Part shown: piece by piece, positions 10,357 to 42,184 of the stretch
Layout of the letters: each line of letters starts with the position of its first letter
Position numbering within the stretch: the first letter of the stretch is position 1
Origin: Spongiibacteraceae bacterium
GTDB taxonomy: Bacteria > Pseudomonadota > Gammaproteobacteria > Pseudomonadales > CAMLJR01
NCBI GenBank assembly: GCA_047602265.1
Contig: JASGHU010000001.1
Location: 3,465,702-3,529,701 of the forward strand
Length of the DNA: 64,000 bases
Reading direction: 5' to 3'
Program-made: the position numbers and the translations under genes
The notes under the pieces: generated by a model
The model's input: only the letters and a program-made list of their open reading frames with translations
The model's database searches: none
Told to the model about the DNA's origin: nothing

Positions 10357-10389
10357 AACGCTGATTCGTAAAATCAGCGTTTATTTTTT
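10357..10389 (+). terminator. Rho-independent terminator of the MCP-NIT pair, overlapping the nikR stop
   Basis: AACGCTGATT-cgtaa-AATCAGCGTT followed by TATTTTTT. Confidence 0.75.
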
Positions 10390-10829
10390 GGAGCGTGCAG
10401 CGGTGGAATCACCGCAGCCATCAACTGCAACCTGCCAGTGATCACGCCGCGCATAGTGATCATCTCGTCGGCGATTTGTTGCAGGCGCAGCACGGGGCCC
10501 TGCACCAGAATCACCTCCATGGTTTGATGATGCATGAGGTGCACATGCAGCGAACTGATAACTTCGTCGATATGTTCGTGCTGTAAATCGGCCAACTGCT
10601 TTTGCAACCCGCGCGTCGAATGGTCATACAACAGCGTGATCGTGCCCGCCATCACCTCATCGCCAAACTCGCGCTTATGCTCGACGACATGCTGATTGAT
10701 CATGTCGCCGATCGCCTGCGAGCGACTTTCGAAACCGCGCCTCTCGACCATTTCATCGAGATCGATCAACAATTCTTCCGGTAACGAAATGCTAATGCGG
10801 CTGACGAGATTTTTTAATTCTTTAGCCAT
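10374..10829 (-). CDS. nikR: Nickel-responsive regulator NikR
   Basis: 151 aa. Ribbon-helix-helix N-terminus (RISISLPEELLIDLDEMVERRGFESRSQAIGDMI) and an ACT-like C-terminal domain with His-rich metal-site residues (HEHIDEVISSLHVHLMHH). Confidence 0.85.
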   Translation of the reverse strand: MAKELKNLVSRISISLPEELLIDLDEMVERRGFESRSQAIGDMINQHVVEHKREFGDEVMAGTITLLYDHSTRGLQKQLADLQHEHIDEVISSLHVHLMHHQTMEVILVQGPVLRLQQIADEMITMRGVITGRLQLMAAVIPPLHAPKNKR

Positions 10830-11166
10830 TGGCTTCTTGGACTCCGTGCCTTGGAGCAGTGAACTGTTATTTTTCGCTTACCAAGTAGCATTTGTTCGTT
10901 TGAACTACTCGGCTCACCAAAGGGGCGAAGGCCGGTGCTTTCCAATGAACCGTTGGCGAAAAATAACAGTCCACGACTCCTTCAAAAACTGCTGCAAACA
11001 TCAATAAAAACCGTATCGATGCATCAAGCGAGGTGGTCGAATATTTTTCGGCCGGACTCCTTGCGAAGCCGAGACAACCCTTGTGTTTGCGGGTTGAATT
11101 TAAAACACCATAGCAACCATTGCTTGCAAGCCGCAAAAATAATCGACTACCTCGCCCACCACAAAA

Positions 11167-12528
11167 CTAAAACATATAGCTATAACGATCGGTCTCCCAT
11201 TGACTCACGCTCAAGTGATATTCCTCCCACTCCAACGTTTTGTATTTGATGAATTCATCGCGCAATTCTTTGCCGAGTACTTTTTCCACGAGTGGATCAG
11301 CAGCGAACGCAGCCACCGCTTCCTGCAAGGTTTGCGGCAGAAATTCGATCCCGCGATCGCGACGTTCGGCATCGCTGATTTCGTACAAGTTATCTTCGTT
11401 CGGCGAACCTGGATCGATACCCTCGCGAATACCTTCCAATCCGGCGGCCAACGCGAGCGTCGCCGCCAAATAGGGATTCACCGCACCATCGGCATTACGT
11501 GATTCACAGCGACCGCCGCCGGCCGGAACGCGTACGGAATTCGTGCGGTTGTTCGAACCGTACGAATTGAATACCGGCGCCCACGAGAAATAGCTCATCG
11601 CACCGCGACGCACCAAGCGCTTGTAGCTATTCACCGTCGGCGCAAACACCGCACACAACGCGCGACCATGTTTGAGAATACCGCCGATAAATTGATAACC
11701 CAGCGGCGTCAAACCGATGCCACGAGGATCATCCTTCGGATCGCAGGCAAATAAATTTTTGCCCGTATCGATGTCGAACAGCGACATATTGAAATGCGCG
11801 CCATTGCCGGTTTTATCGGCAAATGGTTTCGGCATCATCGTCGCGATCAAGCCTTCCTCTTTCGCGTAATGCTTTGCCATGAAGCGGAAGAAGGTGAGGC
11901 GATCGCATGTGGTCAATGCATCGGCATATTGAAAATCGAATTCGTATTGCCCATTGGCATCTTCATGGTCGAAGGAATATAAATCCCAACCAAGATCGTT
12001 GATCGTCGTCGCGACTTTATCGAGCCAGCTGAAACTATCGACAAAACCGCGCACGTCATAACACGGCTTAGTCAATTTGTCGTCGGGATTTGGCACCGCC
12101 AACGTGCCATCTTCATTTTTCTTGAGCAAAAATATTTCGCACTCAATGCCAAGATTAAAGCCGTAGCCGAGTGCCTTCGCTTCGTTCATGACATTTTGCA
12201 AAGCCACGCGCGTATTCAGCGCATACGGTTTTCCCTGAAAATAATTATCCGCGGGAATCCACGCAATTTTCGGCTCCCACGGTAATTGAATCGCGCGATC
12301 GAGATCGGGTACCGAAGTGATTTCGTCATCGTTCGGCGCCTGCCCCAAACCATCGAGCGCGTAACCGGTGTAACGTTCCGAGCCATGCGCCATATGTTCG
12401 AGATGTGCAATCGGCACGACCTTCGCCTTTGGCACGCCATGAATATCGACATAGGCGCCGATGCAATATTTCACGCCTTTTTCTTGCAACTGCTTTTGAA
12501 TGGTTTGAATTTCTGCTGCTGATTTCAT
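11167..12528 (-). CDS. Glutamine-synthetase-family ATP-dependent ligase (type III / gamma-glutamyl-amine synthetase-like)
   Basis: GS catalytic-domain blocks are present: [24 protein letters not shown] and [10 protein letters not shown] prefer the ATG at 12528 (SD GAGG 7 nt upstream) over the GTG at 12552. Confidence 0.85.
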
Positions 12529-12655
12529 CGTATACCTCGTCTTCTCAGTCACTCCGTCATCATGCGGCGACCGTGTTTAACACTCTCGACCGTGGTCCGT
12601 TCGGTCATTCGAAATACGAACGTATCGTCACTTTAAAAGTGCTACTTTAAAATCG

Positions 12656-13411
12656 TCACTTAAAATGGGAGTGATCCAGCGGTGGATTTTCACTAACACC
12701 ACGCATGATGAGATCGCTCAAATCCTCAACCATCCACGCAAACCATTCGCGACCTTTATCGGCATTGGCTCGACTTGGAAATCCCGTTACGCCGTTGGTG
12801 CTCGTACGATTCACCGGATGCGCAAACACTAAATTATCGGTGCGATCGGGATCGTCGGCTTCGGTCAGCAATTCGGTGCGCACCATCTGTGGTGCGCGCG
12901 CCAGCATCAATGACGTTTCAGCATCGTTCGCGTGCCAGTCATCACCATCGGCAAAGTGAAACTCACGTACACGTTTTGAGATCGTCGCTGAGTTAAAAAT
13001 TGCCACCATCATGTCGTCGTGCTCGGAACGCAGCATTTCGAGCGCACAACGCAACGGCGCCGCGTTGGTGACATGCGTATTGACGATAAATAAACGGCGC
13101 ACGCCGCTGCGATATGCCCAATCGCCGATTTGTTTAATCAATTCAATCAGCGTGATCGGTTGAATCGCTATCGTGCCGGGCCAGCGTTCGCTGTGCCCGA
13201 GTGAACAGCCATACGGCATCGTCGGCAACATCGGCACTTGTGTTTGTTGCGAAACAGCGCGACACAATTCATCGGCGAGTACGAAATCCATGCCGCACCC
13301 CATGTGCGGGCCATGCTGTTCAGTCGCACCGATCGGTAAAATCGCAGAGTTATTGACTGCGCTTAATTGCGCGGGCAATTCAGCCCAGGTCGATTCAGCC
13401 CACAGCATCAT
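12656..13411 (-). CDS. Creatininase-family metal-dependent amidohydrolase
   Basis: 251 aa. Carries LPIGATEQHGPHM, the FIVNTH block and a DAETS acidic ligand region, as in creatinine amidohydrolase / ArfB / MftE-type enzymes. It starts 15 nt after the ABC ATPase stop. Confidence 0.85.
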   Translation of the reverse strand: MMLWAESTWAELPAQLSAVNNSAILPIGATEQHGPHMGCGMDFVLADELCRAVSQQTQVPMLPTMPYGCSLGHSERWPGTIAIQPITLIELIKQIGDWAYRSGVRRLFIVNTHVTNAAPLRCALEMLRSEHDDMMVAIFNSATISKRVREFHFADGDDWHANDAETSLMLARAPQMVRTELLTEADDPDRTDNLVFAHPVNRTSTNGVTGFPSRANADKGREWFAWMVEDLSDLIMRGVSENPPLDHSHFK

Positions 13412-13426
13412 TTACTCGCTTCAAGA

Positions 13427-14344
13427 TCATTCAATCTCTTCGACATCATCGCCGACACGCACCATGCGGATCATATTCGGCGATACCTTATCGCTTTCAT
13501 CCTCCTCAACCGCGGGTGGATGAATCAACGCTTCGAGACGTGCTTTGGTGGCGAGAAATTCCGGCGATAAATATTGTTCGGAAAAATTGCGCGGACGCGG
13601 TACGGGAACCTCGATCAACTCCTGCACTTCGCCGGGATGTGCCTTCAACACGAGAATGCGATCGGCGAGAAAAATAGCCTCATCCAGATCGTGCGTGATA
13701 AATAAAATCGTGATATCGATATTTTTCCAGATTTCGAGCAGGTGCGATTGCATCTTGCAGCGCGTCTGCGCATCGAGCGCACCGAACGGCTCATCCATCA
13801 ATAAAATACGCGGCTGATTCGCCAGTGCGCGTGCAATAGCCACACGCTGCTTCATGCCGCCGGATAATTGATGCGGATAGGCATCGGCGAATTTCGATAG
13901 ACCAACCAGATCAAGCCACTGCAGCGCCTCGCTTTCGGCAACGCCACCGCGATTGTTCATTTCGAGGCCAAACATCACGTTCTTTTTGACAGTTAGCCAA
14001 GGAAACAGCGTGTAGCCCTGAAACACCATGCCGCGATCGGAACCGGGCGCTGTCACCGCTTTGCCATCGAGCAATACTTCGCCAGAGGTATACGATTCGA
14101 GCCCGGCGAGAATTCGAATTAATGTCGATTTTCCGCAGCCCGATGGGCCGATTACGCAGACGAATTCGCGACGATGCGTTTTGAAATTAATATCGCGAAG
14201 AGCGGTGACTGCGCCTTGAGCACTGTCATACGTTTTGCCGAGATGCTTGACTTCGAGAATCACTTCGCGCTGTTTCAATTTGTCAAAACGCGAACGTACC
14301 GCATCCGATTGTTCGAGATAGCTTGGCAGATTCGTTTCACTCAT
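13427..14344 (-). CDS. ABC transporter ATP-binding protein (NitT/TauT family)
   Basis: Walker [10 protein letters not shown], signature [15 protein letters not shown], Walker [13 protein letters not shown]. Confidence 0.9.
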
Positions 14345-14389
14345 CGCATCAAATCCTGGACAAATTCGCTGGGGCAGACCGTGTTTGCG

Positions 14390-15418
14390 TTACGCTTTAT
14401 TCGGCGAGCGTTCCCACGGGAATAACCATTTCGCCATCCACGACAGCAGCAAATCAGTGACAAGACCGATAATGCCAATAATGATGATGGCGGCATAAAC
14501 ATTCTCGAAATTCTTGTAACGTGCCTGCTGCGTGATAAACCAGGTAATGCCTGAGCTGGTGCCGATCAATTCCGCCACGATTAAATAGGTCCAAGCCCAA
14601 CCCAGCAAAATGCGCTGATCGCGATACAGATCGGGGAGAATCCCAGGAATTACCACGCGAAACAGCAGCTGCATTTTTTTGGCGCCGAGCGTAAGCGCAG
14701 CTTCCAGCAACGAGATATCGAGTTTGCGTGTGGTGTTGGCAATGACCAGCACTTGCTGAAAGAAGGTGCCGATAAAAATGATCGCGATTTTCGGGCCGTC
14801 ATAAATACCGAGAATCGCTACCGCCAACGCACCGAAGGCAGGTGCCGGCAAATAGCGAAAGAATTCGATGAAGGGTTCACTCAAGCGTGAAAATACGGTG
14901 AATGTTCCGCACAAGATGCCGAGTGGCACACCGATGATCGACGATGCAACGAAACCCCAGAAGATAATTTGAATGCTGTGCCACAAACTTTCATGAAGCC
15001 ATTGGCCATCTTTGCGTTCTGGCGCAGTGGTAAATCCGGTATACAGCGCTTTGGCGACCAAATGCGGCGCCGGCAAATAGATTGGATTCGCTGGCGTTCC
15101 CTGCGGTAACTTCTGCCCCGCAGCCTGAGCGGTGGCAGACTCATCGGCGAATACCGATTTTTCAACCAACATGTCGGGAGCAAAATAACTCACATCTCCC
15201 GGCTCGGTGATACGCATCATCGGATGCCATATGAATGGCACGTAACTGACGATGCTCCAGATGAATAACGGCAGTAAAAACGAACCGATCGTGAGTAACA
15301 ATCGCTCGCGCGGCGACAATTCCTTGCGCACCGCGAACCACGATGTTTTTTGAACTGCGGATTTCTTTTGCATCACCGCACCCGTCACGTCTTTCTCGAT
15401 CTGCTCTACTGCCGTCAT
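14390..15418 (-). CDS. ABC transporter permease (NitT/TauT family)
   Basis: 342 aa and polytopic. It has an EAA-like loop (LEAALTLGAKKMQLLFRVVIPGILP). Confidence 0.9.
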   Translation of the reverse strand: MTAVEQIEKDVTGAVMQKKSAVQKTSWFAVRKELSPRERLLLTIGSFLLPLFIWSIVSYVPFIWHPMMRITEPGDVSYFAPDMLVEKSVFADESATAQAAGQKLPQGTPANPIYLPAPHLVAKALYTGFTTAPERKDGQWLHESLWHSIQIIFWGFVASSIIGVPLGILCGTFTVFSRLSEPFIEFFRYLPAPAFGALAVAILGIYDGPKIAIIFIGTFFQQVLVIANTTRKLDISLLEAALTLGAKKMQLLFRVVIPGILPDLYRDQRILLGWAWTYLIVAELIGTSSGITWFITQQARYKNFENVYAAIIIIGIIGLVTDLLLSWMAKWLFPWERSPNKA

Positions 15419-15430
15419 GTCGCAGGTCTC

Positions 15431-16426
15431 TTAAAGACCGGAAGTGAACGAAGGATCGATATAGCTTTCGATCGGCTGTGCAGTTTTATAAACACTGTAT
15501 TTCACGTTGAAGTCGTCGACGATTTTGGTCGAGCCATAGATCGATTTGAAACCTTCGGCTTTGACATAAGCTGCTTTCGCTTCAGGCAGCGTGAGAATTT
15601 TTGTTCCCTTCAACAGCGCATCGTATTCTGCGGCAGGTACACCGACACGCGCAGCCATGATTTTCACGGCATCGGCGTGCGTTTTCGGATCATGGATGTA
15701 ATCGACAACGCGATACCAAACCTTCACGACTTTTTGCCAATCGGCTTTGCGCGCGGCTACACTTGCTGGATTCACCGCGAGCACGTCGTAAATCAAACCG
15801 GGCTCATCCGCCGAGGTGTAAATCGGTTTCGAACCGGGAACGAGTTTCAGCGCCATACCGGAGTTAGGCTGCCACGCACCGATCGCAGCGACACCACCCG
15901 ATGCCAGAACTTGCGGTGTTTCGTTAGTCGGCGAATTGACGAGCTCAACATCGCTCTCTTTCATGCCGGCTTTTTCGAGACCATTGAGCAGCAGCAGGTG
16001 ATCGACAAATCCAACTTCTACGCCCACTTTTTTGCCTTTCAAATCTTTGAGCGATTTGATGCCGGGCTTGCCGACAATCATGTCGTTGCCGTTCGAATAG
16101 TCGTTGATAAGAATCATCACGCTCTTCGCGCCGTTGGCACCGGTGACAAGTGCATCGCCATTGGTAACCGTTACCGCATCGAGTTTTCCTGCAGCGTAGG
16201 CATCCATCGAAGCGACATAATCGAACCACTCGAATTGCACATCGACACCGGCCTCTTTAAACCAGCCTTTCTCGATGGCGACTTGCCAAGCCACCCATCC
16301 CGGCCAATCCGAGTAGCCCACTTTCAATGGTGGCGCCGCGAATGCCGGCAACGCTGCGCTACATAGCAGAGACAAAGCAACACGCTTGAGCCAGCGTGCA
16401 CACACGTTTTTCGTACGTTGTTTCAT
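15431..16426 (-). CDS. ABC transporter periplasmic substrate-binding protein (NitT/TauT family; the type usually found next to urea/guanidine carboxylase genes)
   Basis: Signal peptide ends ...[21 protein letters not shown] prefer the ATG at 16426 (SD GGGAGA); the track ORF extends to the TTG at 16441. Confidence 0.85.
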
Positions 16427-16514
16427 TGCGGGTTCTCCCAAAGGTCACGTTCACTGCTTGTTTTCAACAACTGGTTTCGAGTATTACGATTTGATCTTGC
16501 CGTAATACCGTGTG

Positions 16515-16530
16515 AGCAACCCCCATGCCA
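16515..16530 (-). promoter_or_regulatory. Sigma-54 -24/-12 promoter for the ABC transporter operon
   Basis: The minus strand reads TGGCATGGGGGTTGCT (GG-N10-GC, TTGCT -12 block), about 90 nt upstream of the ATG at 16426. Confidence 0.6.
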
Positions 16531-16615
16531 GCGATAAAAAATCCCGAAACATCAACAGCCCAACTGTTTTCTCACGCGACTACAGATGGAAAAGCAACGT
16601 GATTGCGCTCCAAAA

Positions 16616-16652
16616 CAATGCAAGACGCTTTGTTTTGGAGCGGAAAAAAAGG
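16616..16652. promoter_or_regulatory. 13-bp-arm inverted repeat, a candidate enhancer-binding-protein site (UAS)
   Basis: CGCTCCAAAACAA-11 nt-TTGTTTTGGAGCG, located 90-135 bp upstream of the sigma-54 -24 element. Confidence 0.35.
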
Positions 16653-16734
16653 TTTGCCAGAAAAAAAAACTTGGGTTAGCCTGAAAAAAGACAGCGATAA
16701 CTGCAGTGTTTTATCGCCTGTTTGGAGTAAGCAA

Positions 16735-16882
16735 TGGACGACTAGGGTTCCGGTTTTCTAAGCAGCCACATCGATTGAGGTGCAGCGAAAACGGCAGGTC
16801 CGAGAGTTGTCGACCTCATCGAACCGATCTTGCCAATTTGTTCGCGAGGTTACACGGCGGGATAAAAGCCCGGGAGATTTTG
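16735..16882 (+). promoter_or_regulatory. Guanidine-I riboswitch (ykkC-yxkD motif)
   Basis: The invariant blocks appear in the right order: ACTAGGGTTCCGG ... GGTCCGAGAG ... ACACGGCGGGATAAAAGCCCGGGAGA. It sits about 125 nt upstream of the first DUF1989 gene. Confidence 0.85.
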
Positions 16883-17005
16883 ATAACGCACGCGCTCGTT
16901 TGACGACACGTAAACGAAGTTGTGTTATCCGAATTAACGCATCGCTGACGATGCACGTGTTAACCGAGCCATGTATTCGTATCGAAAGACGAATCGAATT
17001 GGGAG

Positions 17006-17818
17006 ATGGGTATGCCTCACAACGAATCCTTAAACAAATCTTTATTCGCATCGACGAAACCTCTCTATCGCGACGAAATCGAAGGCGGTAAGCACTGGTC
17101 TTTCGTAATCAAGCGCGATCACGTCCTACGCATTATCGACAAAGACGGCGGTGCCAATGTCGGCATGCTGTTTTACAACCCGCTCAATCCGCTCGAACGC
17201 TACAACGCACCCGATACGCTGAAATGTCAGCACACGTTCAAGCTCACCAAAGGGCATTGCCTGTATTCGGATATGGGCCGCATTTTTTGTTCTATCGTCG
17301 ACGACACTTGCGGCTGGCATGACACCGTCGCCGGCACCAGCAATAAAGCGCTCGTAAAAAATCGCTGGGGCGAACACAACTATCAACAATTTCGCAACGA
17401 CTGGTACTTAAATGGGTATGACAGCTTTCTCGTCGAACTCGCCAAATACGGTTTGGGAAGAAAAGATTTAGCGGCCAACGTCAATTGGTTCAGTAAGGTC
17501 GCGGTCGACGACGCGGGCAATTTTCAGTATGACGAAAGCCACAGCAAAGCCGGCAATTATGTCGACCTGCGTTTTGAGATGGATACGCTGGTGATTTTCA
17601 ACACCTGCCCACATCCGCTCAATAAATCCAGCGAATATCCACGCAAATCGATCATCTACGAATTTTACGAAGCAGCGCCGCGCGCCGCCGACGATTTCTG
17701 CGAGCACTCGTGCTGCGAGAACGAACGCGGATTTAAAAATAATGCGCTCTACCATCTTCAAGCGACAGGCGCATTTCCTATTTTCAAAAACCAGAATGGC
17801 TTCGGAGGTGCGCAATGA
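17006..17818 (+). CDS. DUF1989 'urea-carboxylase-associated' protein, probable carboxyguanidine deiminase subunit (CgdA/B type)
   Basis: 270 aa and a paralogue of the next gene. It sits between the riboswitch and the carboxylase. The start could be 17012. Confidence 0.8.
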
Positions 17819-18450
17819 TACTCTCAAGCCAACTCGCACCCGAAGCAGCAACGTATCGCAAAGTCATTCCAGCCGGCGATTACTGGATGCACGTGATCAA
17901 GAAAGGTCAGGTATTGCGCATTCTCGATCTCGAAGGCAATCAGGCGGCGGACACACTGTTTTATTCGGCTGCTGATCCCGGCGAACGCTACTCTGCTGTC
18001 GACACCATTCGCGAACAAGGCAATGTGTATTTAACCGCGGGCACGAAATTATTATCGAACGAAGGCAATGTGCTGCTCGAAATCGTCGCCGATACCTGCG
18101 GCAGACACGACACCCTCGGCGGCGCGTGCGCAACCGAATCGAATACCGTGCGTTACGCACTCGAAAAGAAATGCATGCATGCGTGTCGCGATAGCTGGAT
18201 GCTCGCCGTTGCCGAAAACGAAAAATTCGGCATGACCAAGCGCGACATTACCCACAACATCAATTTCTTCATGAACGTGCCGGTAACACCCGAAGGCGGT
18301 TTGACGTTCGCCGACGGTATTTCCGAAGCCGGAAAATACGTTGAATTAAAAGCCGAGATGGATGTGATCGCGCTGCTGTCGAATTGCCCGCAGCTGAACA
18401 ATCCATGCAATGCATACAACCCAACACCGATTGAAGTGTTGATTTGGTGA
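17815..18450 (+). CDS. DUF1989 'urea-carboxylase-associated' protein, second probable carboxyguanidine deiminase subunit
   Basis: 211 aa. ATGA start/stop overlap with the previous gene. The two share the motif pattern ([20 protein letters not shown] versus [20 protein letters not shown]). Confidence 0.8.
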
Positions 18451-18460
18451 GGGTGACAAT

Positions 18461-21400
18461 ATGTTTAACGCTGTATTAATCGCCAATCGCGGCGCCATTG
18501 CCTGCCGCATTATTCGTACGCTGAAAGCGATGAATATCCGCGCCATCGCCGTGTATTCGGAAGCCGATGCCGACTCGCGCCATGTCGCGCTCGCCGATGC
18601 CGCTTTCAGTTTGGGTGTTGGCAATGCCGCGCAAACCTATCTCGATCAGGACAAGTTATTTGCGATCGCGAAGCAAAGCGGCGCGCAGGCAATTCATCCG
18701 GGTTATGGATTTCTGAGTGAGAACGCAGGCTTCGCACGCCGCTGTGCCGCAGAAAATATTGTATTCCTCGGCCCCACGCCCGAGCAGATGGAGGCCTTCG
18801 GCCTCAAGCACACCGCGCGACAACTCGCGGTCGACAGCAAATTACCGCTGCTGCCAGGCAGCGGCTTACTCGACACGTTAGACGAAGCGATTACAACAGC
18901 TGAACGCATCGGCTATCCACTCATGTTGAAATCCACCGCGGGCGGCGGCGGTATCGGCATGCAGCTGTGCTTTAGCGAAGACGATTTGCGCGCAGCGTAC
19001 GATTCGGTGCGCAGACTTTCTGCCAATAATTTTTCGAACAGCGGTGTGTTCCTCGAAAAATACGTCGGCAATGCACGCCATATCGAAGTACAAATTTTCG
19101 GCGATGGCAAAGGCGGCGCGCTCGCGCTCGGCGAACGTGACTGCTCGACACAGCGCCGCAATCAGAAAGTTATCGAAGAAACGCCAGCGCCGAATTTACC
19201 CGAGAGCGTGCGCACGCAATTGCGCGATGTTTCGATTCGTCTCGCCAGCGCCGTGCAATACCGCAGCGCGGGCACCATCGAATTTATTTACGATCCACAG
19301 GCCGAGCAAGTTTACTTTCTCGAAGTCAATACGCGACTGCAGGTCGAACACGGCGTCACCGAACAGATTTACGGCGTCGATCTCGTGCGCTGGATGATCG
19401 AAGTTGGCGCAGGCGAATTGCCGCCGCTCGATCAACTCGCCAAAAATCTAACCCCGCGCGGCCATTCGATTCAGGTGCGCTTGTACGCGGAAGATCCCGG
19501 CAAGAATTTTCAGCCGAGTGCAGGATTACTCAGCTCAGTAGATTTCCCGGAAGCTGACGGCAAGCAATTGCGAATTGATCACTGGCTCGAAGCGGGCATC
19601 GAGGTCTCGCCCTTCTTCGACCCGATGCTCGCGAAAATTATTGTGTGGCGCGACACGCGCGAAGCGGCGATTGACGCTCTCGATCACGCACTGTCGCAAA
19701 GCACGGTTTACGGAGTCGAAACCAATCGCGATTATTGCCGCGCGATTTTGCGCAGCGACATTTTTACACGCGGTGAAATCCACACGCGCTATCTCAATCA
19801 ATTCGAATTTCTGGCTCCGCGCATCGATGTGCTGCGCGCGGGCACGATGACGACGATTCAGGATTTTCCCGCTCGCGGCGGCTACTGGGATGTCGGCGTG
19901 CCGCCGTCGGGACCGTTCGACGATTGGTCGTTCCGGCTTGGCAATCGCCTGCTCGGCAACGATGAGAAATGCGCGGGCCTCGAAATCACACTCAACGGCC
20001 CGACACTGCAATTTCGAACCGCAACACAAATTGTGTTGGCTGGTGCACCACTCGCAGCAAAACTCAACGACGCGCCGGTCGATTATTGGCAAGTGATCGA
20101 TATTGCTGCGGGCGATGTGTTGTCGATTGGCAGTAACACCGCATCGGGAGCGCGCGCGTATTTGCTCGTGCGCGGCGGCATTGAATGTCCGGATTATCTC
20201 GGCGCAAAATCCACATTCACGCTCGGCCAGTTCGGCGGTCATAACGGCCGTGCATTGCGTGCGGGCGATGTGATTGCGATTTCGCCGCTCGAAGCGAAAG
20301 TTGACGCAAAGCTATTAGCGAGCGATTTAATTCCCGCGCTCAATTCGACGTGGGATATTCACGTTATTTACGGCCCGCATGGCGCACCCGATTTTTTCAC
20401 GCCGAGCGACATTGAGAAATTCTTCGAAGCCGAATGGGAAGTGCATTACAACTCCTCGCGCACGGGCGTGCGTCTGATCGGCCCGAAACCCGAATGGGCG
20501 CGCAGCGATGGCGGCGAAGCAGGCATGCATCCGTCGAATATTCACGATAACGCCTACGCACTGGGCAGCATCGATTTCACCGGCGATATGCCCGTGATTC
20601 TCGGGCCCGATGGCCCTTCGCTCGGCGGTTTCGTGTGCCCCGCTACGGTCATTCGCGCCGAGCGTTGGAAAATTGGCCAGCTCAAAGCCGGAGATCGTGT
20701 GCGTTTTGTTCCGGTCACGCTTGCGACTGCCGAAAAAATCGAACGCGCACAACTCGCTGCGCTGGAAAACTTAAGCGCACAAAATATCGCTGTCGAATCC
20801 TGCACAAGTCTGCCGAATCCAATCATCGATTCCATCGCGGCAACCGATGCGAGTGTCGCGGTGAATTATCGCTGCGCCGGCGATAAATTTCTGCTCGTCG
20901 AATACGGTCCGATGATGCTCGATATCGATCTGCGTTTTCGCGTGCACGCACTCATGCTCGAATTACAACGCAGTAAACCCGCCGGTATTTTCGAGATGAC
21001 GCCGGGTATTCGCTCGCTGCAAATTCATTACGACAATCTGCGCATCAGCACCGCGCAATTGATTGCGTGGCTGAAAGATACCGAAGCCAAACTCGGTGCG
21101 AGCGACGATCTCGAAGTACCTGCGCGTGTCGTTTATTTGCCGCTGTCGTGGGATGACGAAGCCTGTCGCCTCGCGATCGAGAAATACATGCAGTCGGTGC
21201 GCAAAGACGCGCCGTGGTGCCCGAGCAATATCGAATTCATTCGCCGCATCAACGGCCTCGATAGCATCGACGACGTGAAAAAAACCGTGTTCGATGCGAG
21301 TTATGTGGTGATGGGCCTCGGCGATGTGTATCTCGGTGCGCCCGTAGCCACGCCGCTCGATCCGCGCCATCGCCTCGTCACCACCAAATACAATCCTGCA

Positions 21401-22075
21401 CGCACGTGGACGGCGGAAAACTCAGTCGGCATCGGCGGCTCATATATGTGCGTGTACGGCATGGAAGGTCCTGGCGGCTATCAATTTGTCGGCCGCACGC
21501 TGCAGATGTGGAACCGCTATCGCACCACGAAAGAATTTTCCAAACCATGGCTGCTGCGCTTCTTCGATCAGATTCGCTTTGTCGAAGTCAGTGCCGAAGA
21601 ACTTGTAAAAATTCGGCGCGATTTTCCCAATGGACGTTATTCGCTGCGCATCGAAGAAACCACCTTCAACTTGCAGCAGTACCGCCAATTTCTGCGCGAC
21701 AACGCGGACGACATCGCCGCCTTCACGAAAACACGCGATGAGGCCTTCGCGGAGGAGCTGCAGCGCTGGCGCGATAACGGCCAATTCACCTTCGACAATA
21801 CCCCGCTCGATGTCGATACGAGTGGGGATACCGAGCAGCTTCCACCGGGTGGCATTGCGGTGGAAAGTCAGGTCGCGGGCAGCATTTGGAAGATTCTGGT
21901 CAAGCCCGGTGAAAAAATTAAATCGGGCCAGATTATTGCTGTGCTCGAATCGATGAAAATGGAGATCGACGTACACGCCAGCGTCGACGGCGTTGTACAC
22001 AACATTGCCCGCGGGGAAGGCAGCCAGATCGGCGCTGGCCAAACTCTGATGGTGATTCGCGAGGAGAAAATTTAA
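18461..22075 (+). CDS. Biotin-dependent urea/guanidine carboxylase (context favours guanidine carboxylase)
   Basis: 1204 aa. N-terminal biotin carboxylase (MFNAVLIANRGAIACRIIRT...), central carboxyltransferase/KipA-KipI-like regions, and a C-terminal biotinyl domain with the AVLESMKME motif. Confidence 0.9.
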   Translation: MFNAVLIANRGAIACRIIRTLKAMNIRAIAVYSEADADSRHVALADAAFSLGVGNAAQTYLDQDKLFAIAKQSGAQAIHPGYGFLSENAGFARRCAAENIVFLGPTPEQMEAFGLKHTARQLAVDSKLPLLPGSGLLDTLDEAITTAERIGYPLMLKSTAGGGGIGMQLCFSEDDLRAAYDSVRRLSANNFSNSGVFLEKYVGNARHIEVQIFGDGKGGALALGERDCSTQRRNQKVIEETPAPNLPESVRTQLRDVSIRLASAVQYRSAGTIEFIYDPQAEQVYFLEVNTRLQVEHGVTEQIYGVDLVRWMIEVGAGELPPLDQLAKNLTPRGHSIQVRLYAEDPGKNFQPSAGLLSSVDFPEADGKQLRIDHWLEAGIEVSPFFDPMLAKIIVWRDTREAAIDALDHALSQSTVYGVETNRDYCRAILRSDIFTRGEIHTRYLNQFEFLAPRIDVLRAGTMTTIQDFPARGGYWDVGVPPSGPFDDWSFRLGNRLLGNDEKCAGLEITLNGPTLQFRTATQIVLAGAPLAAKLNDAPVDYWQVIDIAAGDVLSIGSNTASGARAYLLVRGGIECPDYLGAKSTFTLGQFGGHNGRALRAGDVIAISPLEAKVDAKLLASDLIPALNSTWDIHVIYGPHGAPDFFTPSDIEKFFEAEWEVHYNSSRTGVRLIGPKPEWARSDGGEAGMHPSNIHDNAYALGSIDFTGDMPVILGPDGPSLGGFVCPATVIRAERWKIGQLKAGDRVRFVPVTLATAEKIERAQLAALENLSAQNIAVESCTSLPNPIIDSIAATDASVAVNYRCAGDKFLLVEYGPMMLDIDLRFRVHALMLELQRSKPAGIFEMTPGIRSLQIHYDNLRISTAQLIAWLKDTEAKLGASDDLEVPARVVYLPLSWDDEACRLAIEKYMQSVRKDAPWCPSNIEFIRRINGLDSIDDVKKTVFDASYVVMGLGDVYLGAPVATPLDPRHRLVTTKYNPARTWTAENSVGIGGSYMCVYGMEGPGGYQFVGRTLQMWNRYRTTKEFSKPWLLRFFDQIRFVEVSAEELVKIRRDFPNGRYSLRIEETTFNLQQYRQFLRDNADDIAAFTKTRDEAFAEELQRWRDNGQFTFDNTPLDVDTSGDTEQLPPGGIAVESQVAGSIWKILVKPGEKIKSGQIIAVLESMKMEIDVHASVDGVVHNIARGEGSQIGAGQTLMVIREEKI

Positions 22076-23928
22076 TGCTGGCTTTTGAACAAATCGATCT
22101 CACTATTTCCGGCCTGCGCGCGCATTACCAACGCGGCGATTTCACACCGCGCGAATTGATCGCCCTGCTGCGCGAGCGCAGCAAGCAATTCGTCGATCGC
22201 AATATCTGGATTCATGAGTTGAGCGACGCCGAGATCGACATTTACTTGAGTGCTCTCGATAAGCGCTCACCCACCGATGCACCGCTGTACGGTGTTCCCT
22301 TCGCCATTAAAGATAATATTGACCTCGCCAACATCGAAACAACCGCTGCGTGCAAAGCCGTCGCATTCACGCCGAGCGAAGATGCATTCGTCGTCAATAA
22401 TTTAATTGCTGCCGGCGCGATTCCACTCGGCAAAACCAATCTCGATCAACTTGCGACGGGCATCAATGGCACGCGCTCACCGTGGGGCCCCGGCAAAAAC
22501 AGTTTCGATCCAAAATATATTTCGGGCGGTTCGAGTTCGGGTTCGGCGATTGCGGTTGCACTCGGCATCGCCACATTTTCGCTCGGCACCGACACCGCAG
22601 GCTCCGGCCGCATTCCCGCCGCGTTCAACAATATCGTCGGCTGGAAACCCACACGCGGCATTTTAAGCAGCCGCGGTATGCTGCCCGCATGCCGCACACT
22701 CGACTGCATCACGCTGTTCACCTCCACCGCCGCCGATACCGCTGCATTGCTGCCCTTCGTCGCGCGTTACGATGAGAAGGATGCCTACGCACGCGTCAAT
22801 CCTGCGCACAATACATCGAACAGCGGCATGGCGAATCCGTTCGGTGCACCTGCCAAAAAATCGTTTAAATTCGGTGTACCGCGCGCCGATCAGCTTGAAT
22901 TTTATGGCAACGAAAACTATGCAGCAGCGTTTGCGAAAAGTATTGCATTGCTCGAAAGCATCGGCGGTATCAAACGCGAGATCGATTTCCGTGATTTTCT
23001 CGATGCCGCGCGCCTGCTGTACGAAGGCCCATGGATTGCCGAGCGTTATCACGGCATTCGCGAACTGATCGATAGTAATCCTTCTGCGTTATTGCCCGTG
23101 ATTCAAACCATCATCGGTCAGGGCCGCGATAAATCCGGCGTCGATACGTTCGATGCGATGTACAAAATGCAGGAATTCCGCCGCAAGATCGAACCTCTCA
23201 TCAACTCGCTGGAATTCATTGCAACACCAACCGCGGGCACGCATTTCACGATTGAAGAAATGCTGGCCGAACCGATTCTGCATAATTCGCAGCTCGGCTA
23301 TTACACCAACTTTATGAATCTGCTCGATCTTGCCGCTGTCGCTGTGCCCACGCAGATACTCGACAACGGCATGCCCTTCGGCATTACCTTATTTTCCGAT
23401 CGCTTCACCGATCTGCGTTTGCTCAGTTACGCACAAAAAATTCAAGCGACGACGAAACTGCCGCTTGGCGCCACGAAAAAAGCGGTTGAATTCCCCGCGC
23501 TGCCCGCACGCACCGAATTATCGACGTGCAAGGTTGTCGTCTGCGGCGCACACATGAGCGGCCTGCCATTCAACAATCAATTACTCGCGCGTCAAGCGAA
23601 ATTAATTTCAAAAACCAAAACGTCGTCGAGCTATCGCTTCTACGCGCTTCCAGGCGGCGCGGTACAACGTCCGGGTTTGATTCGTGTCGGCTCTCTCAAT
23701 GACGCTAGTGCTGGGGGCGGCGCAGCGATTGAAGTCGAAGTTTGGGAAATGCCGAGTGTCGAATTCGGCTCCTTCGTCGCCGCGATTCCGCAACCGCTCG
23801 GTATCGGCAAAGTGGAATTGGAAAGTGGTGAATGGGTACCGGGATTTATTTGCGAAGGTTATGCAGTAAACGGCGCGGAAGATATTACGGCGCTCGGCGG
23901 GTGGCGGAATTTTATCGGGCGCAAATAA
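22075..23928 (+). CDS. Allophanate hydrolase
   Basis: 617 aa. Amidase-signature domain (GGSSSGSAIAVALG, GTDTAGSGRIPAAFNN) plus the extra C-terminal domain typical of allophanate hydrolases. TAATG overlap with the carboxylase. Confidence 0.9.
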   Translation: MLAFEQIDLTISGLRAHYQRGDFTPRELIALLRERSKQFVDRNIWIHELSDAEIDIYLSALDKRSPTDAPLYGVPFAIKDNIDLANIETTAACKAVAFTPSEDAFVVNNLIAAGAIPLGKTNLDQLATGINGTRSPWGPGKNSFDPKYISGGSSSGSAIAVALGIATFSLGTDTAGSGRIPAAFNNIVGWKPTRGILSSRGMLPACRTLDCITLFTSTAADTAALLPFVARYDEKDAYARVNPAHNTSNSGMANPFGAPAKKSFKFGVPRADQLEFYGNENYAAAFAKSIALLESIGGIKREIDFRDFLDAARLLYEGPWIAERYHGIRELIDSNPSALLPVIQTIIGQGRDKSGVDTFDAMYKMQEFRRKIEPLINSLEFIATPTAGTHFTIEEMLAEPILHNSQLGYYTNFMNLLDLAAVAVPTQILDNGMPFGITLFSDRFTDLRLLSYAQKIQATTKLPLGATKKAVEFPALPARTELSTCKVVVCGAHMSGLPFNNQLLARQAKLISKTKTSSSYRFYALPGGAVQRPGLIRVGSLNDASAGGGAAIEVEVWEMPSVEFGSFVAAIPQPLGIGKVELESGEWVPGFICEGYAVNGAEDITALGGWRNFIGRK

Positions 23929-23974: not shown

Positions 23975-24424
23975 GTGATAGCAAGTCGTGATGAAGTAAC
24001 GGAAATGATCGTATCCACCAAGGTACGTAAAGGTATCAAGTGGAAAGACGCTGCCGAGTTGATCGGTCTTTCGAAAGAGTGGACAACGGCTGCCTGTCTC
24101 GGGCAAATGACGTTCAACAAAGAGCAAGCCGAAAAAATTGGCAAGCTGTTCGAATTACCCGATGAAGCGATCGCCTGGCTGCAAATTGCGCCTTACAAAG
24201 GCTCGCTGCCAACCGCAGTACCAACTGATCCTCTCATCTATCGCTGGTATGAAATCGTCAACGTTTACGGCTCAACCATCAAAGAATTAATTCATGAAGA
24301 ATTCGGCGACGGCATCATGAGCGCCATCGATTTCTCGATGGATATTCAACGTGAACCCGACCCAAAAGGCGACCGCGTGCATGTGGTGTTGTCGGGTAAA
24401 TTTTTGCCTTACAAAACTTATTGA
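23975..24424 (+). CDS. cynS: Cyanase (cyanate hydratase)
   Basis: 149 aa. Colinear with E. coli CynS, including PTDPLIYRWYEIVNVYG, KELIHEEFGDGIMSAIDF and the C-terminal GKFLPYK. GTG start with SD AGGGAGA. Confidence 0.9.
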   Translation: MIASRDEVTEMIVSTKVRKGIKWKDAAELIGLSKEWTTAACLGQMTFNKEQAEKIGKLFELPDEAIAWLQIAPYKGSLPTAVPTDPLIYRWYEIVNVYGSTIKELIHEEFGDGIMSAIDFSMDIQREPDPKGDRVHVVLSGKFLPYKTY

Positions 24425-34596: not shown

Positions 34597-35163
34597 TCAG
34601 GCTGCGATCAATAACGCACTGCCGACAACCGTCAGCAATGCGCCCATTTCGCGATATATATTAACGTTGGTTTTCGATAACAAATTTGCAATAACGAGAC
34701 CCAACCCATGCAGCAGCGCGGTGGCAGCTAACATACCGATACCCGTTGCAATGGGCGCCGAGCCCGACAATTCAGTGCCGTGCGCCAGCCCATGCAACGC
34801 AGCAAATATCGCGACCACACTCAACTGAATGGCAAACGGCATCGTGATCTGTAACAAAAACATCACACCGAGTGCGATCAGGCCAGCGGCGATGCCACTC
34901 TCGATTGCGCCGAACGTTAAACCCGCAACCGCGCTCAGCCAGCCAATCGCCATCGCACTCAAAAACGCGAGCGGCAATTGCCAACGCGCGCTGCCACCGA
35001 TGCGCCCGGCGAAGATACCGACACACAACATCATCAACAAATGATCGACACCCGTAAATGGGTGTGCGAACGCCGACAGAAAACTCTCGCCGTGACCCGG
35101 ATGCGCGAATGCAAACGACGGCAGACAAAACAATGCTGCACCGATCATTTTTTTGTTCATCAT
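34597..35163 (-). CDS. ureJ: HupE/UreJ-family nickel transporter/accessory membrane protein
   Basis: 188 aa. Signal sequence followed by AHPGHG...HPFTGVDHLLMMLCVG, the hallmark of this family. It lies 18 nt downstream of ureG. Confidence 0.85.
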   Translation of the reverse strand: MMNKKMIGAALFCLPSFAFAHPGHGESFLSAFAHPFTGVDHLLMMLCVGIFAGRIGGSARWQLPLAFLSAMAIGWLSAVAGLTFGAIESGIAAGLIALGVMFLLQITMPFAIQLSVVAIFAALHGLAHGTELSGSAPIATGIGMLAATALLHGLGLVIANLLSKTNVNIYREMGALLTVVGSALLIAA

Positions 35164-35181
35164 TAAACTCTCGCTCGTTAA

Positions 35182-35796
35182 TTAATGTTTCATCAGGCCG
35201 CGCGTTTCGATGAAACGCACAATATCTTCCAGGCCCTGACCGGATTTTAAATTGCTGAATAAAAACGGGCGCTCACCGCGCATGCGTTTGGCATCGCGAT
35301 CCATCACTTCGAGCGATGCACCCACCATCGGCGCGAGATCAATTTTATTGATGACAAGCAAATCCGATTTGGTAATGCCGGGTCCGCCCTTACGCGGAAT
35401 TTTTTCGCCTGCGGCCACATCGATCACGTAAATCGTTAAATCGGATAATTCGGGACTGAATGTCGCCGCAAGATTATCGCCGCCGCTTTCGACAAACACG
35501 ATATCGAGCGCTTCAAAACGATTGCACAACTGCGCCACCGCCTCGAGATTCATCGACGCATCTTCGCGAATCGCGGTATGCGGGCAGCCGCCTGTTTCCA
35601 CGCCGATAATGCGCTCGGGCACAAGCGCTTCGTTGCGCGTGAGAAACTCCGCGTCTTCTTTTGTGTAAATATCGTTGGTGACCACCGCGATGTTATAAAC
35701 CTCGCGTAAACGTTTACAGAGCGATAAGGTCAATGCTGTTTTTCCGGAGCCGACCGGGCCACCGATACCGACGCGGAGGGGTTCGTTACTTGCCAT
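35182..35796 (-). CDS. ureG: Urease accessory GTPase UreG
   Basis: P-loop [22 protein letters not shown] and ESGGDNL motifs. Confidence 0.95.
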
Positions 35797-35823
35797 ATTT
35801 TTCGATCACCTATTTTTCAATAA

Positions 35824-36540
35824 TTACGAACGAAATAATCTGCTGTACTGCGTTTCATGCCTTGCACCTGCAATCGACAAGCCCGGTGCAAAATTGCTGA
35901 TTTCATCATCCCCCAGCGCACATGCGGTTTGTACCGCCGCAGGAATTCTTGCGCCAAGCTCTAGCAACATGCGCTGACCCGCGACTTGACCGAGCGGCAC
36001 CGCTTTCATCGCCGCGCTGACCTGATTTTCAATCCACGACCACAAAAATGCATGCAATGAACTGTGCATGGGAATCTGCCACACCGAGGTAGCGCACGCG
36101 TATGCCAATGAAAACGATACGGGCACGAAGCGTTCAATCAACATCAGCGCATCGGTGTCGAGATCGATATCATCGAGCAAGCGCACCAGCGAATAACCCA
36201 TCTGCAATGTTTCGGCGCGCGCTTCGGCGGTATCGCGGCCCGCGCAGTAATAACTGTTCCAGTATTTCAGCGCGGCCAGATCTTTTTTGTCCCACGCCTT
36301 GCGCATACGCCATAACACCGGCAATTCGAAACGGCACATGTAGGTTTCGATCACATCACCAATCCAAACCGCCGCACTGCTGGCATCGGTCACGGTTTGA
36401 GTTTCGATCGCCCATTCCAGCCCTTGCGAATACGCATATGCACCGACCGGCAACATCGGACTCGCCAATTGCAATAATCGGCTGAGATCATTTGGCTCCA
36501 GTGCAATTGCGTATTGCGCTTTAGCTGTCATAGCGATCAA
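35824..36540 (-). CDS. ureF: Urease accessory protein UreF
   Basis: 238 aa. Carries LLQLASPMLPVGAYAYSQGLE, typical of UreF, and has the right position in the operon. Confidence 0.9.
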   Translation of the reverse strand: MIAMTAKAQYAIALEPNDLSRLLQLASPMLPVGAYAYSQGLEWAIETQTVTDASSAAVWIGDVIETYMCRFELPVLWRMRKAWDKKDLAALKYWNSYYCAGRDTAEARAETLQMGYSLVRLLDDIDLDTDALMLIERFVPVSFSLAYACATSVWQIPMHSSLHAFLWSWIENQVSAAMKAVPLGQVAGQRMLLELGARIPAAVQTACALGDDEISNFAPGLSIAGARHETQYSRLFRS

Positions 36541-37019
36541 TGCTCGTGATGGTGATGATGTCCTCCGCCATACGCACCGGCTTCCGGTTCGAATGGCGCC
36601 GATTCTTCAACCACATGCATACTCAAACCGAGCAGCATGGCTTTCAATACATGATCCTGTTCAAGCCGAAGCCAGCCGTCGCCGATTTGCAGCGGCACAT
36701 GGCGATTGGCGAGGTGATAAACCGCTCGCAATAATTGCTGTGAATTGTTGGCGGTTACCTTCATCACAGTTTCGTTCGCAGCGACGACTTTAATCACGCG
36801 CCCGTCACCCGAGCGCAGAAAATCGCCGCCGCGCAAAATCGTTCCGCGCTCCAACATCAGCGCCGCTTCGATGCCGGATTTCAGCGTGACACGCAAACGG
36901 CTTTTCTGACGTAAATCGAAGGGCAAAATCAATTCATCATCGAAATACTCGATTGGCTCGATGCGTTCGGTGATTTGTAAAAGCATTGTGATCATTGTGC
37001 TTGTGTTCTCATCGAGCAC
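36537..37019 (-). CDS. ureE: Urease accessory metallochaperone UreE
   Basis: 160 aa with a His-rich tail (GGGHHHHHEH). 4-nt overlap with ureF. The start may be an internal ATG. Confidence 0.9.
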   Translation of the reverse strand: MLDENTSTMITMLLQITERIEPIEYFDDELILPFDLRQKSRLRVTLKSGIEAALMLERGTILRGGDFLRSGDGRVIKVVAANETVMKVTANNSQQLLRAVYHLANRHVPLQIGDGWLRLEQDHVLKAMLLGLSMHVVEESAPFEPEAGAYGGGHHHHHEH

Positions 37020-38723: not shown

Positions 38724-38735
38724 GGTAGGTTTTTC

Positions 38736-39044
38736 TCACTTCAACTTGCCCATCACGCGACCGGCAAAACCATAAACGACGCGATCACCCGCGAGTGCAA
38801 CCAATTGCACCGTGCGCGTTTGACCCGGTTCGAAACGCACCGCGGTTCCTGCGGCAATATCCAAACGAAATCCATACGCTTTTTCGCGATCGAACGCGAG
38901 CGCGTCGTTGGTTTCGAAAAAATGATAATGCGAGCCGACTTGAATCGGGCGATCGCCCGTATTCGCCACTTCGATTTCCACCGTCGCGCGACCGACATTC
39001 AATTCGATGTCGCCTGCTGCAATTTGCATTTCACCTGGGATCAT
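38736..39044 (-). CDS. ureB: Urease beta subunit UreB
   Basis: 102 aa. MIPGE...[19 protein letters not shown]. Confidence 0.95.
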
Positions 39045-39062
39045 GGAGCCTCCAATATTTTT

Positions 39063-39184
39063 CCCTCTCCCGTTCGGGGAGAGGGATTAAGGGAGAGGGC
39101 TTACGAAGTTTAAAAGTATCAATTGAAATAATTTCAACATCGCTGCCCTCTCCCCTGCCCCTCTCCCCAAATGGGAGAGGGGAG
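39063..39184. repeat. Composite palindromic (REP/MITE-like) element, copy A, filling the ureA-ureB spacer
   Basis: CCCTCTCCCgttcgGGGAGAGGGattaaGGGAGAGGGC ... GCCCTCTCCCCtgCCCCTCTCCCCaaatGGGAGAGGGGAG. The arms are mutually inverted. Confidence 0.9.
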
Positions 39185-39187
39185 TCT

Positions 39188-39490
39188 TTATGGTATCGGA
39201 TGATGCACCGTCACCAATTTCGTACCATCTGGAAACGTCGCCTCGACTTGAATTTCGGGAATCATTTCCGCGACGCCTTCCATCACATCATCGCGCGACA
39301 ATAATGTCGCGCCATGGCCCATGAGCTGCGCCACGGTCATACCATCGCGCGCGCCTTCCATAATCGCAGCGGTAATAAACGCGACCGCTTCCGGGTAATT
39401 CAATTTGAGACCGCGCGCTTTTCTACGCTCGGCTAATAGCGCTGCGGTAAAAATCAGCAGCTTGTCTTTTTCTCTGGGTGTCAGTTCCAT
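39188..39490 (-). CDS. ureA: Urease gamma subunit UreA
   Basis: 100 aa. [35 protein letters not shown]. Confidence 0.95.
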
Positions 39491-39537
39491 GCGTCTGTCT
39501 TTTTTGCAATGAGCGTTAATTTTTTAGGAAAAATGAA

Positions 39538-40473: not shown

Positions 40474-40512
40474 AGCAAAAAATCTTATCCGACATAGCGA
40501 GGAGCGCTGCGA

Positions 40513-41211: not shown

Positions 41212-41238
41212 AATATTTCCTCAACACTTCGGACTGTT

Positions 41239-41329: not shown

Positions 41330-41331
41330 TT

Positions 41332-42171: not shown

Positions 42172-42184
42172 TGAACCCTATATC

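Follow-up and report, generated by a model that had tools for sequence, protein, structure and literature searches.

What does an operon annotated for urea breakdown actually degrade, and what would tell the cell when to translate it? These questions are raised by a locus in a 64,000-nt stretch of the genome of an uncultured, marine-type Spongiibacteraceae bacterium (contig JASGHU010000001.1, positions 3,465,702 to 3,529,701), which we refer to as the window and whose first nucleotide is position 1 of all coordinates given here. We consider it fairly probable that a guanidine-I riboswitch in the leader of a guanidine-assimilation operon acts here as a translational ON switch without an intrinsic terminator, and that the importer of the same system is controlled separately. 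The core of this finding, that operons labelled 'urea amidolyase' serve to assimilate guanidine, was already published between 2017 and 2020; it helps to correct the annotation of this metagenome-assembled genome (MAG), and is not a discovery. What would be new is the predicted translational platform, in which the loop of aptamer helix P2 serves as an anti-Shine-Dalgarno (anti-SD) sequence, together with an importer that is apparently under control of its own.

The aptamer and the genes that follow it are these:

16731-16878, + strand: guanidine-I (ykkC subtype 1) aptamer, RF00442, with helices P1, P1a/b, an extended P2 with a 15-nt loop, and P3
17012-17818, + strand: cgdA-type DUF1989 protein (UAAP1; TIGR03425, 330 bits against a cut-off of 206; PF09347)
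17815-18450, + strand: cgdB-type DUF1989 protein (UAAP2; TIGR03424, 341 bits against a cut-off of 285), with an ATGA overlap with cgdA
18461-22075, + strand: biotin-dependent guanidine carboxylase of 1204 aa, annotated 'urea carboxylase' (TIGR02712, 1850 bits)
22075-23928, + strand: allophanate hydrolase of 617 aa (TIGR02713, 728 bits against a cut-off of 511; PF01425 and PF21986, Amidase and AH_C)
23975-24424, + strand: cyanase, cynS (NF002773, 227 bits)

The element at 16731-16878 is a guanidine-I riboswitch aptamer of ykkC subtype 1. When the 64-kb window was scanned against the 4227 families of Rfam 15, this segment matched RF00442 over the full length of the model (positions 1-107 of 107) with 82.0 bits, against a gathering score of 63, and E = 4.5e-13. 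A preliminary description of this DNA had named the same class from the letters alone, and the conserved blocks that it quoted, ACTAGGGTTCCGG (16741-16753), GGTCCGAGAG (16797-16806) and ACACGGCGGGATAAAAGCCCGGGAGA (16852-16877), lie where it placed them and in consensus order. All consensus base pairs are canonical except one A.C in P2, and the minimum-energy prediction for transcripts that end at 16880 or at 16935 is the aptamer fold. The guanidine-I class was reportedly established by Nelson and co-workers in 2017, and its structures are said to come from Reiss and co-workers and from Battaglia and co-workers in the same year; the window aptamer has all of the conserved blocks and helices of that class, is associated with 'urea carboxylase' genes as members of the class are, and shares the ON logic expected from its gene context. 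The adenosine diagnostic of subtype 1, which we take to be A46 of the Reiss structure, is present, as the window reads GGUCCG-A-GAG, the same as the RF00442 consensus. An adenosine at this position, as opposed to the pyrimidine of subtype 2, separates guanidine aptamers from the variants that bind guanosine tetraphosphate (ppGpp) or phosphoribosyl pyrophosphate (PRPP) (PMC6031431). A permissive Rfam rescan of 16300-17200 on both strands found no second aptamer and no other ykkC-type family, even at E <= 10.

The aptamer ends 133 nt before the ATG at 17012 and 127 nt before an alternative ATG at 17006; the earlier estimate was about 125 nt. The start at 17012 is the more likely of the two because of the SD sequence GGGAG at 17001-17005. 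The two adjacent DUF1989 paralogues belong one to each clade, UAAP1 and UAAP2, as in a CgdAB pair. The carboxylase is complete in architecture, with the TIGR02712 match covering residues 2-1199, the Pfam domains in order and a biotin motif, SMKME, and its gene overlaps that of the allophanate hydrolase by TAATG. All four enzymes score above the curated NCBIfam cut-offs, and these family matches and overlaps uphold the gene set given in the preliminary description. Guanidine carboxylase would convert guanidine to carboxyguanidine, CgdAB would deiminate this to allophanate, and allophanate hydrolase would release ammonia and CO2. The cyanase gene has an SD sequence of its own (GGGAGA) and begins 46 nt past the allophanate hydrolase stop codon, with no terminator-like site between the two genes, and it is probably the last, co-transcribed gene of the operon. 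In the related loci, most of which end before the corresponding position, a cynS homologue was not found. Between cgdB and the carboxylase gene there is only a 10-nt gap, in which Rfam finds nothing and hence no internal guanidine-II switch.

Could this nevertheless be an ordinary urea amidolyase system, a urea carboxylase with its allophanate hydrolase, beside which the aptamer stands by chance? The family names point that way, as NCBIfam calls the proteins urea carboxylase and urea amidolyase-associated proteins, but the literature has since reassigned the family to guanidine. Guanidine carboxylases have Asp at the positions numbered 1584 and 1330 in Kluyveromyces lactis, where urea carboxylases have Asn at 1330 (Palatinszky et al., 2024, PMC11410670), and a review of 2025 agrees on these specificity residues (PMC12186494). 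The window carboxylase can be aligned over its full length with the structure 3VA7 from K. lactis; it has D705 (GSIDFTGD) at position 1330, where K. lactis has N (GAINFTGD), and D955 (GLGDV) at position 1584 (3VA7 index 991), where K. lactis also has D. The window enzyme thus carries the published guanidine-carboxylase signature, which supports a preference for guanidine as a prediction of its kinetics. A guanidine-I aptamer also lies directly upstream, and the window holds a separate urease system:

about 34597-46358, - strand: complete urease cluster (ureD, ureC, ureE/F/G, ureJ/hupE) and Urt-type urea ATP-binding cassette (ABC) transporter

With a complete urease cluster and a Urt transporter in the same window, urea has a dedicated route. 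We therefore regard a urea amidolyase as extremely improbable here, and the preliminary claim of a guanidine rather than a urea operon is sustained by the D705/D955 pair, by DUF1989 and allophanate hydrolase scores above the NCBIfam cut-offs, and by the separate urea system. With the guanidine cluster, the urease cluster and the Urt transporter all within one window, the region looks like a nitrogen-scavenging island. A match to 5_ureB_sRNA (RF02514; 38285-38571, + strand, 91 bits) is antisense to the urease alpha-subunit gene (37020-38723, - strand), in its 5' part; many of the consensus pairs of the match are non-canonical, and its most likely explanation is that the urease coding sequence is conserved, not that a genuine antisense small RNA is encoded here.

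How, then, would the aptamer control the genes behind it? The leader contains the following elements, several of them predicted:

16654-16682, + strand: putative sigma-70-type promoter of the riboswitch operon, with -35 TTGCCA (16654-16659), a 17-nt A-rich spacer and -10 TAGCCT (16677-16682)
16691-16721, + strand: 5' leader hairpin ACAGCGATAA / TTATCGCCTGT between promoter and aptamer, read from the sequence
16823-16840, + strand: predicted antagonist of the ribosome-binding site (RBS), ACCGAUCUUGCCAAUUUG, comprising the P2 loop and adjoining strand and containing the sub-clade motif GAUCUUGCC (16826-16834)
16849-16857, + strand: segment A, GGUUACACG, the 3' end of P2 and the start of the conserved ligand-pocket region; predicted anti-aptamer target
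16883-16930 and 16940-16955, + strand: two spacer hairpins found in all predicted states, the first being the GATAACGCA/TGTGTTATC helix
16957-16966, + strand: strand B, CGUGUUAACC, the predicted anti-aptamer strand
16995-17014, + strand: cgdA ribosome-binding region, with SD GGGAGA (17001-17006) and ATG (17012-17014); predicted partner of 16823-16840

The operon's transcription start is predicted near 16689. The pattern TTTGC...A-tract...TAGCCT is invariant in eight aligned relatives (alignment A1), and a generic promoter scan did not call this promoter because its -10 element is weak. At the position of the 5' leader hairpin the relatives have, as judged by eye, hairpin-forming but unrelated sequences.

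Guanidine-I riboswitches are mostly transcriptional, and the described members mostly have an intrinsic terminator whose 5' arm overlaps, and competes for, the 3' tail and P3 of the aptamer (PMC5340920, PMC12186494). The window has none: two independent scans found no terminator-like hairpin followed by a T-run between 16878 and 17012, as the preliminary description had stated. This feature is typical of the class and does not define it. Among related loci its absence is common: in a crude scan of 71 distinct leaders, linked to cgdA or to a transporter, only about 8-10 had a terminator that overlaps the aptamer; the earlier remark that such a platform is less typical for the class thus holds against the generalisation in the literature and fails among the relatives.

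In the same description two hairpins were singled out, GATAACGCA/TGTGTTATC at 16883-16930 and ATTCGT/ACGAAT at 16975-16994. Both exist, but as switching elements they were rejected, for they form in every predicted state, as passive spacers, and are not conserved. The sequences of the spacer hairpins differ among relatives, and we infer that the hairpins at 16883-16955 have a delay or spacer role.

The lack of an intrinsic terminator would also be compatible with Rho-based transcription control, in which the untranslated leader and early cgdA would be terminated when guanidine is absent, with SD sequestration as the trigger or with some other element exposing a Rho utilization (rut) site. In other classes, translational riboswitches are known to be coupled to Rho (cited in PMC12508155), and early cgdA has a modest stretch richer in C than in G (17035-17268, C/G 1.3-1.6), but the leader is neither C-rich nor G-poor (C/G about 1), and the base composition of leader and early cgdA gives no clear rut signal. 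We hold this possible but doubtful, and it would in any case complement a translational mechanism rather than replace it.

A translational platform, which the preliminary description had allowed for, gains support both from the missing terminator and from a coherent alternative fold that is predicted to sequester the SD sequence. We folded the window leader as successive 3' truncations and, in addition, in a model with the aptamer enforced. Stepwise folding gave the Rfam aptamer as the minimum-energy structure up to 16935; once 16957-16966 was included, strand B paired with segment A, and P1 and P2 opened; and once the RBS was included, the unconstrained minimum-energy fold paired the freed half of P2 and its loop (16823-16840) with 16995-17011, burying the SD sequence. 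In the free ensemble the SD sequence was unpaired with a probability of 0.05, and enforcing the aptamer raised this to 0.41.

The identities of the aptamer and of the genes and the carboxylase signature are shown by the sequence matches; the mechanism that we propose, like the functions given to promoters and operator, is a prediction from folding and comparative sequence only. The aptamer would fold first. If guanidine were absent, strand B, made some 80 nt later, would pair with segment A and open P2, and the freed half of P2 with its loop would then pair with the SD region and keep the ribosome from binding. Once it has bound guanidine, the aptamer would resist this invasion, P2 would keep its loop, and the RBS would stay free.

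Comparison with related loci, to which the L-numbers used here (L001, L161 etc.) refer, argues for both halves of this switch. The motif GAUCUUGCC occurs in the P2 loop only in the sub-clade to which the window belongs. Leaders folded independently of one another pair the RBS with the P2 region in 10 of 11 cases within this sub-clade and in none of seven distant aptamer-bearing leaders. The helix between segment A and strand B is predicted in all 11 sub-clade leaders; among the seven distant ones it is complete in one (L017) and marginal in another (L035, 3 nt). Duplexes of a P2 hairpin with its own RBS are stronger than those with the RBSs of other lineages (mean -22.7 versus -18.1 kcal/mol), with permutation p < 1e-5 for the 11 leaders and 7e-5 for nine lineages, and 5e-5 in an earlier, motif-anchored version. 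In L001 and L081 the P2 loops are unrelated, yet the RBSs match their own loops. L161 offers a compensatory change, as its P2 reads CCAAAUUU in place of CCAAUUU and its RBS AAUUUGG in place of AAUUGG, an extra A being matched by an extra U; its GAUCGG pairs perfectly with CCGAUC, and the strand B sequence CGTGTTAACCGAGC is conserved. Finally, about 13 loci have an exact complement of GGTTACACGG, 7-9 nt long and in most cases an 8-mer, on the 3' side of the aptamer; chance would give about one 8-mer match.

Several points weigh against such a switch. Even the model of the 'bound' state exposes the SD sequence with a probability of only 0.41. The OFF fold exceeds the aptamer-enforced fold in stability by about 30 kcal/mol (-99.4 versus -69.7), so ligand control would have to be kinetic; nearest-neighbour folding models ignore the tertiary contacts of the aptamer. 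The + strand promoter and the transcription starts are themselves inferred. L082 has a good duplex energy but lacks P2:RBS pairing in its minimum-energy fold, and L002 and L006 have weak cognate P2/RBS complementarity. The helix between segment A and strand B cannot show true covariation because segment A is invariant. Several relatives in the sub-clade also have terminators, and translation control may therefore be an add-on rather than the main mechanism.

The same energy gap, together with a z-score of only -2.3 for the whole leader and -1.3 for its 3' part, could be taken to mean that a real aptamer stands here without a working expression platform, with expression leaky or constitutive and the alternative pairings mere by-products of folding a long structured leader. 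That P2/RBS complementarity is lineage-specific and comes with a compensatory change speaks against this, as do the conservation of strand B in L161 and the presence of an equivalent in all 11 sub-clade leaders, and we judge a missing platform very unlikely.

The proposed translational switch resembles the known riboswitches that sequester the SD sequence with an anti-SD released from the aptamer (guanidine-II and -III or the proteobacterial thiamine pyrophosphate (TPP) and lysine switches, for example) in that a ligand-stabilised aptamer is predicted to compete with an alternative fold that buries the SD sequence. It differs from them in aptamer class, in having a separate invading strand 80 nt downstream, and in using as anti-SD the distal loop of P2, a helix with no known tertiary role. 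From other members of the guanidine-I class it differs in that the predicted competitor pairs with the 3' end of P2 and the ACACG segment, while the P2 loop supplies the anti-SD. If the platform is real, it would be a translational guanidine-I design in which the loop of an aptamer helix doubles as anti-SD and the competitor attacks the junction of P2 and ligand pocket rather than the 3' tail. It would then be moderately interesting, both for how riboswitches work and for building guanidine-responsive switches in Proteobacteria.

The second part of the answer concerns uptake. Divergent from the riboswitch operon lies another gene set, with a control region between the two:

10374-16426, - strand: divergent operon, with genes for a substrate-binding protein (16426-15431), a permease (15418-14390), an ATPase (14344-13427), a creatininase-family protein (13411-12656), a type III glutamine synthetase (12552-11167) and a NikR-family protein (10829-10374)
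16481-16508, no strand assigned: NikR-type operator-like inverted repeat GTATTAC-N14-GTAATAC over the predicted sigma-54 start; its spacer contains GATCTTGCC (16493-16501)
16515-16530, - strand: putative sigma-54 promoter TGGCAT-GGGGG-TTGCT, the only exact TGGCAY-N5-TTGCW in the 64 kb, about 90 nt upstream of the start codon of the binding-protein gene
16606-16642, no strand assigned: palindrome with 13-bp arms, CGCTCCAAAACAA-N11-TTGTTTTGGAGCG, between the divergent promoters and about 90-110 bp upstream of the sigma-54 promoter

The first gene, with its ATG at 16426, encodes an NMT1/SsuA-type binding protein. The divergent ABC system is likely a guanidine importer, because this protein is 74-87% identical to the binding proteins beside cgdA in relatives, and because other genomes have orthologous ABC genes ahead of cgdA and in the same direction, several of these genomes also with an aptamer about 2.8 kb upstream. 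For the window's own transporter operon the permissive rescan of 16300-17200 found no aptamer on either strand, even at E <= 10. Gene order through NikR is kept in L161/L162 and in L163-165, and the genes beyond NikR differ. The type III glutamine synthetase (TIGR03105, 661 bits) fits a role in ammonium assimilation; for the creatininase-family protein, no role in guanidine metabolism is described in the literature that could be searched. Genes for these two proteins also recur beside guanidine carboxylase clusters in several unrelated genomes (L051, L038, L039, L059, L035, L058, L150 and L134), in some of them immediately upstream of the riboswitch.

The sigma-54 promoter, with its upstream palindrome, appears to drive the importer operon, and the NikR-type operator would lie over the operon's start site. 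The GCAA...TGCCA blocks of the promoter are invariant in the eight relatives of alignment A1 (L161 reads TGGCAC-ACGGG-TTGC), and the CGCxCCA...TGGxGC blocks of the palindrome are conserved in the same alignment; the palindrome is probably an upstream activator site for this promoter. The exact sigma-54 consensus and the upstream palindrome, both conserved in relatives, imply that the operon depends on an enhancer-binding protein, probably one that responds to nitrogen status.

The last gene of the operon encodes a NikR-family protein (NF003381, 134.8 bits against a cut-off of 105; PF01402 and PF08753, that is, a ribbon-helix-helix domain and NikR_C). The high-affinity nickel ligands of NikR are presumably His76, His87, His89 and Cys95 in Escherichia coli numbering. 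The three histidines are kept in the window protein and in three cluster-linked homologues, and Thr stands in all four at the place of Cys95, which is present in NikR of E. coli and Pyrococcus; the set of nickel ligands is thus incomplete. The homologues (window 10374-10829 (-), L161:8584-9039, L162:2801-3256 and L163:12533-12994) are 92-93% identical, with the Thr in HVHLMHHQTMEV. Because Thr replaces Cys95, we do not class the window protein as a canonical nickel sensor, and it may be a paralogue with altered metal or ligand specificity.

Its candidate operator is the sole perfect match to GTATTAC-N14-GTAATAC in the window, and the arms are invariant in 12 loci. No other NikR-type palindrome was found in the window, for instance near ureJ/hupE; the only other match has two mismatches, lies in coding sequence and is at chance level. 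Described NikR signals are GTATGAT-N13/14-ATCATAC in E. coli and GTGTTAC-N13/14-GTAACAC in delta-proteobacteria (Rodionov et al., 2004, PMC545781). The 28-bp repeat of the window has the same kind of architecture (7-N14-7), departs from the delta-proteobacterial consensus by one mismatch per half-site, and has a NikR-family gene in the operon that it precedes. It differs from known operators in its target, a putative operon for guanidine import and ammonium assimilation rather than a nickel transporter. Taken together, this suggests NikR-type control of the putative guanidine importer.

Regulation would then be split, with the catabolic genes under the riboswitch and the importer, glutamine synthetase and creatininase-family genes under a predicted sigma-54 promoter and NikR-type operator. 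Such a division suggests different signals for guanidine uptake and for guanidine breakdown; those acting on the importer may be nitrogen status and perhaps also nickel or some other ligand.

There is also the question of whether the two operons speak to each other through RNA. The sequence GATCTTGCC occurs four times on the + strand of the window (16493, 16826, 23326 and 25346) where 0.65 occurrences are expected, and none of 100 shuffles reached four; two copies are those in the P2 loop and in the spacer of the inverted repeat, and the others, in the allophanate hydrolase gene and in an opposite-strand MCP gene, are unexplained. It is tempting to speculate that the P2-loop motif, alone or in addition to its cis role, forms a kissing contact with the loop of a 5'-terminal hairpin of the importer mRNA (GGCAAGAUC, about +5 to +13) and so couples importer and catabolic expression. 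The 9-mer is present in both places in the window, L002, L003/4, L082/84 and L161, and L085 has a U.G-compatible change; 9-10 contiguous base pairs could form at -17 to -21 kcal/mol, and cognate pairs exceed non-cognate ones by permutation (p = 0.027). That statistic is weak, however, and driven by a single split between the motif lineages and L001/L081. The spacer may owe its constraint to the operator or to the initial transcribed sequence; L006 lacks the palindrome despite having the motif in P2; and the importer transcription start is only predicted. As the cis anti-RBS role already explains conservation of the motif, we think a kissing contact unlikely.

A combined version, in which the sub-clade P2 loop is an arm with two targets, the SD sequence of cgdA in cis and, through GAUCUUGCC, an importer mRNA whose promoter is gated by sigma-54 and an atypical NikR (Cys95 to Thr) in trans, seems to us quite unlikely. 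Were it true, the riboswitch would also work in the manner of an antisense RNA and tie together uptake, catabolism and a signal, metal or other.

How does this arrangement compare with guanidine operons known elsewhere? The pathway of CgdAB, guanidine carboxylase and allophanate hydrolase was reportedly worked out in Pseudomonas syringae by Schneider and co-workers in 2020, and the guanidine carboxylase operons of Raoultella, Klebsiella and Erwinia are said to have been described by Sinn and co-workers in 2021. A further operon is that of Vreelandella boliviensis (Sinn et al., 2025). The window shares with all of these the enzyme set, the Asp signature of the carboxylase and an adjacent NMT1/SsuA-type ABC importer. 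The enterobacterial and Vreelandella operons have a guanidine-I switch before the importer and cgdAB and a guanidine-II switch before the carboxylase gene (PMC12186494, PMC12508155), whereas the window has a single guanidine-I switch before cgdAB-gca-atzF, no internal switch, and a divergent importer without a riboswitch. Its cluster also adds a creatininase-family gene, a type III glutamine synthetase gene, a NikR-family gene and a cyanase gene.

Among relatives, the best CgdA matches from genome and metagenome collections reach only 74-78% identity; closer loci, in which the creatininase-family protein is 85-94% identical, were reached by way of that protein. The aptamer stands 70-200 nt upstream of cgdA in many relatives, and about 2.8 kb upstream in others, ahead of co-directional ABC transporter genes.

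Two peculiarities of related loci, neither seen in the window, may be added. The window has no upstream open reading frame (ORF) between aptamer and cgdA; a clade of gammaproteobacterial MAGs (L032, L051, L053, L054, L055, L065 and L074) has one there of about 26 codons (in L054, for example, MSKQDLQHFPAKLLVPLFIGTGVIHHG), which has its own SD sequence CTGGAGAGAAG and ends in a TGA that overlaps the cgdA ATG (ATGGCTGA). This arrangement suggests that riboswitch control in that clade works through translational coupling. The window CgdA also lacks an N-terminal extension that the homologue in L081 (about 1830-1990) appears to carry, where it would be encoded by about four tandem copies of the 24-nt unit CCCAGCGCCAACCTCGGCGCCAAT.

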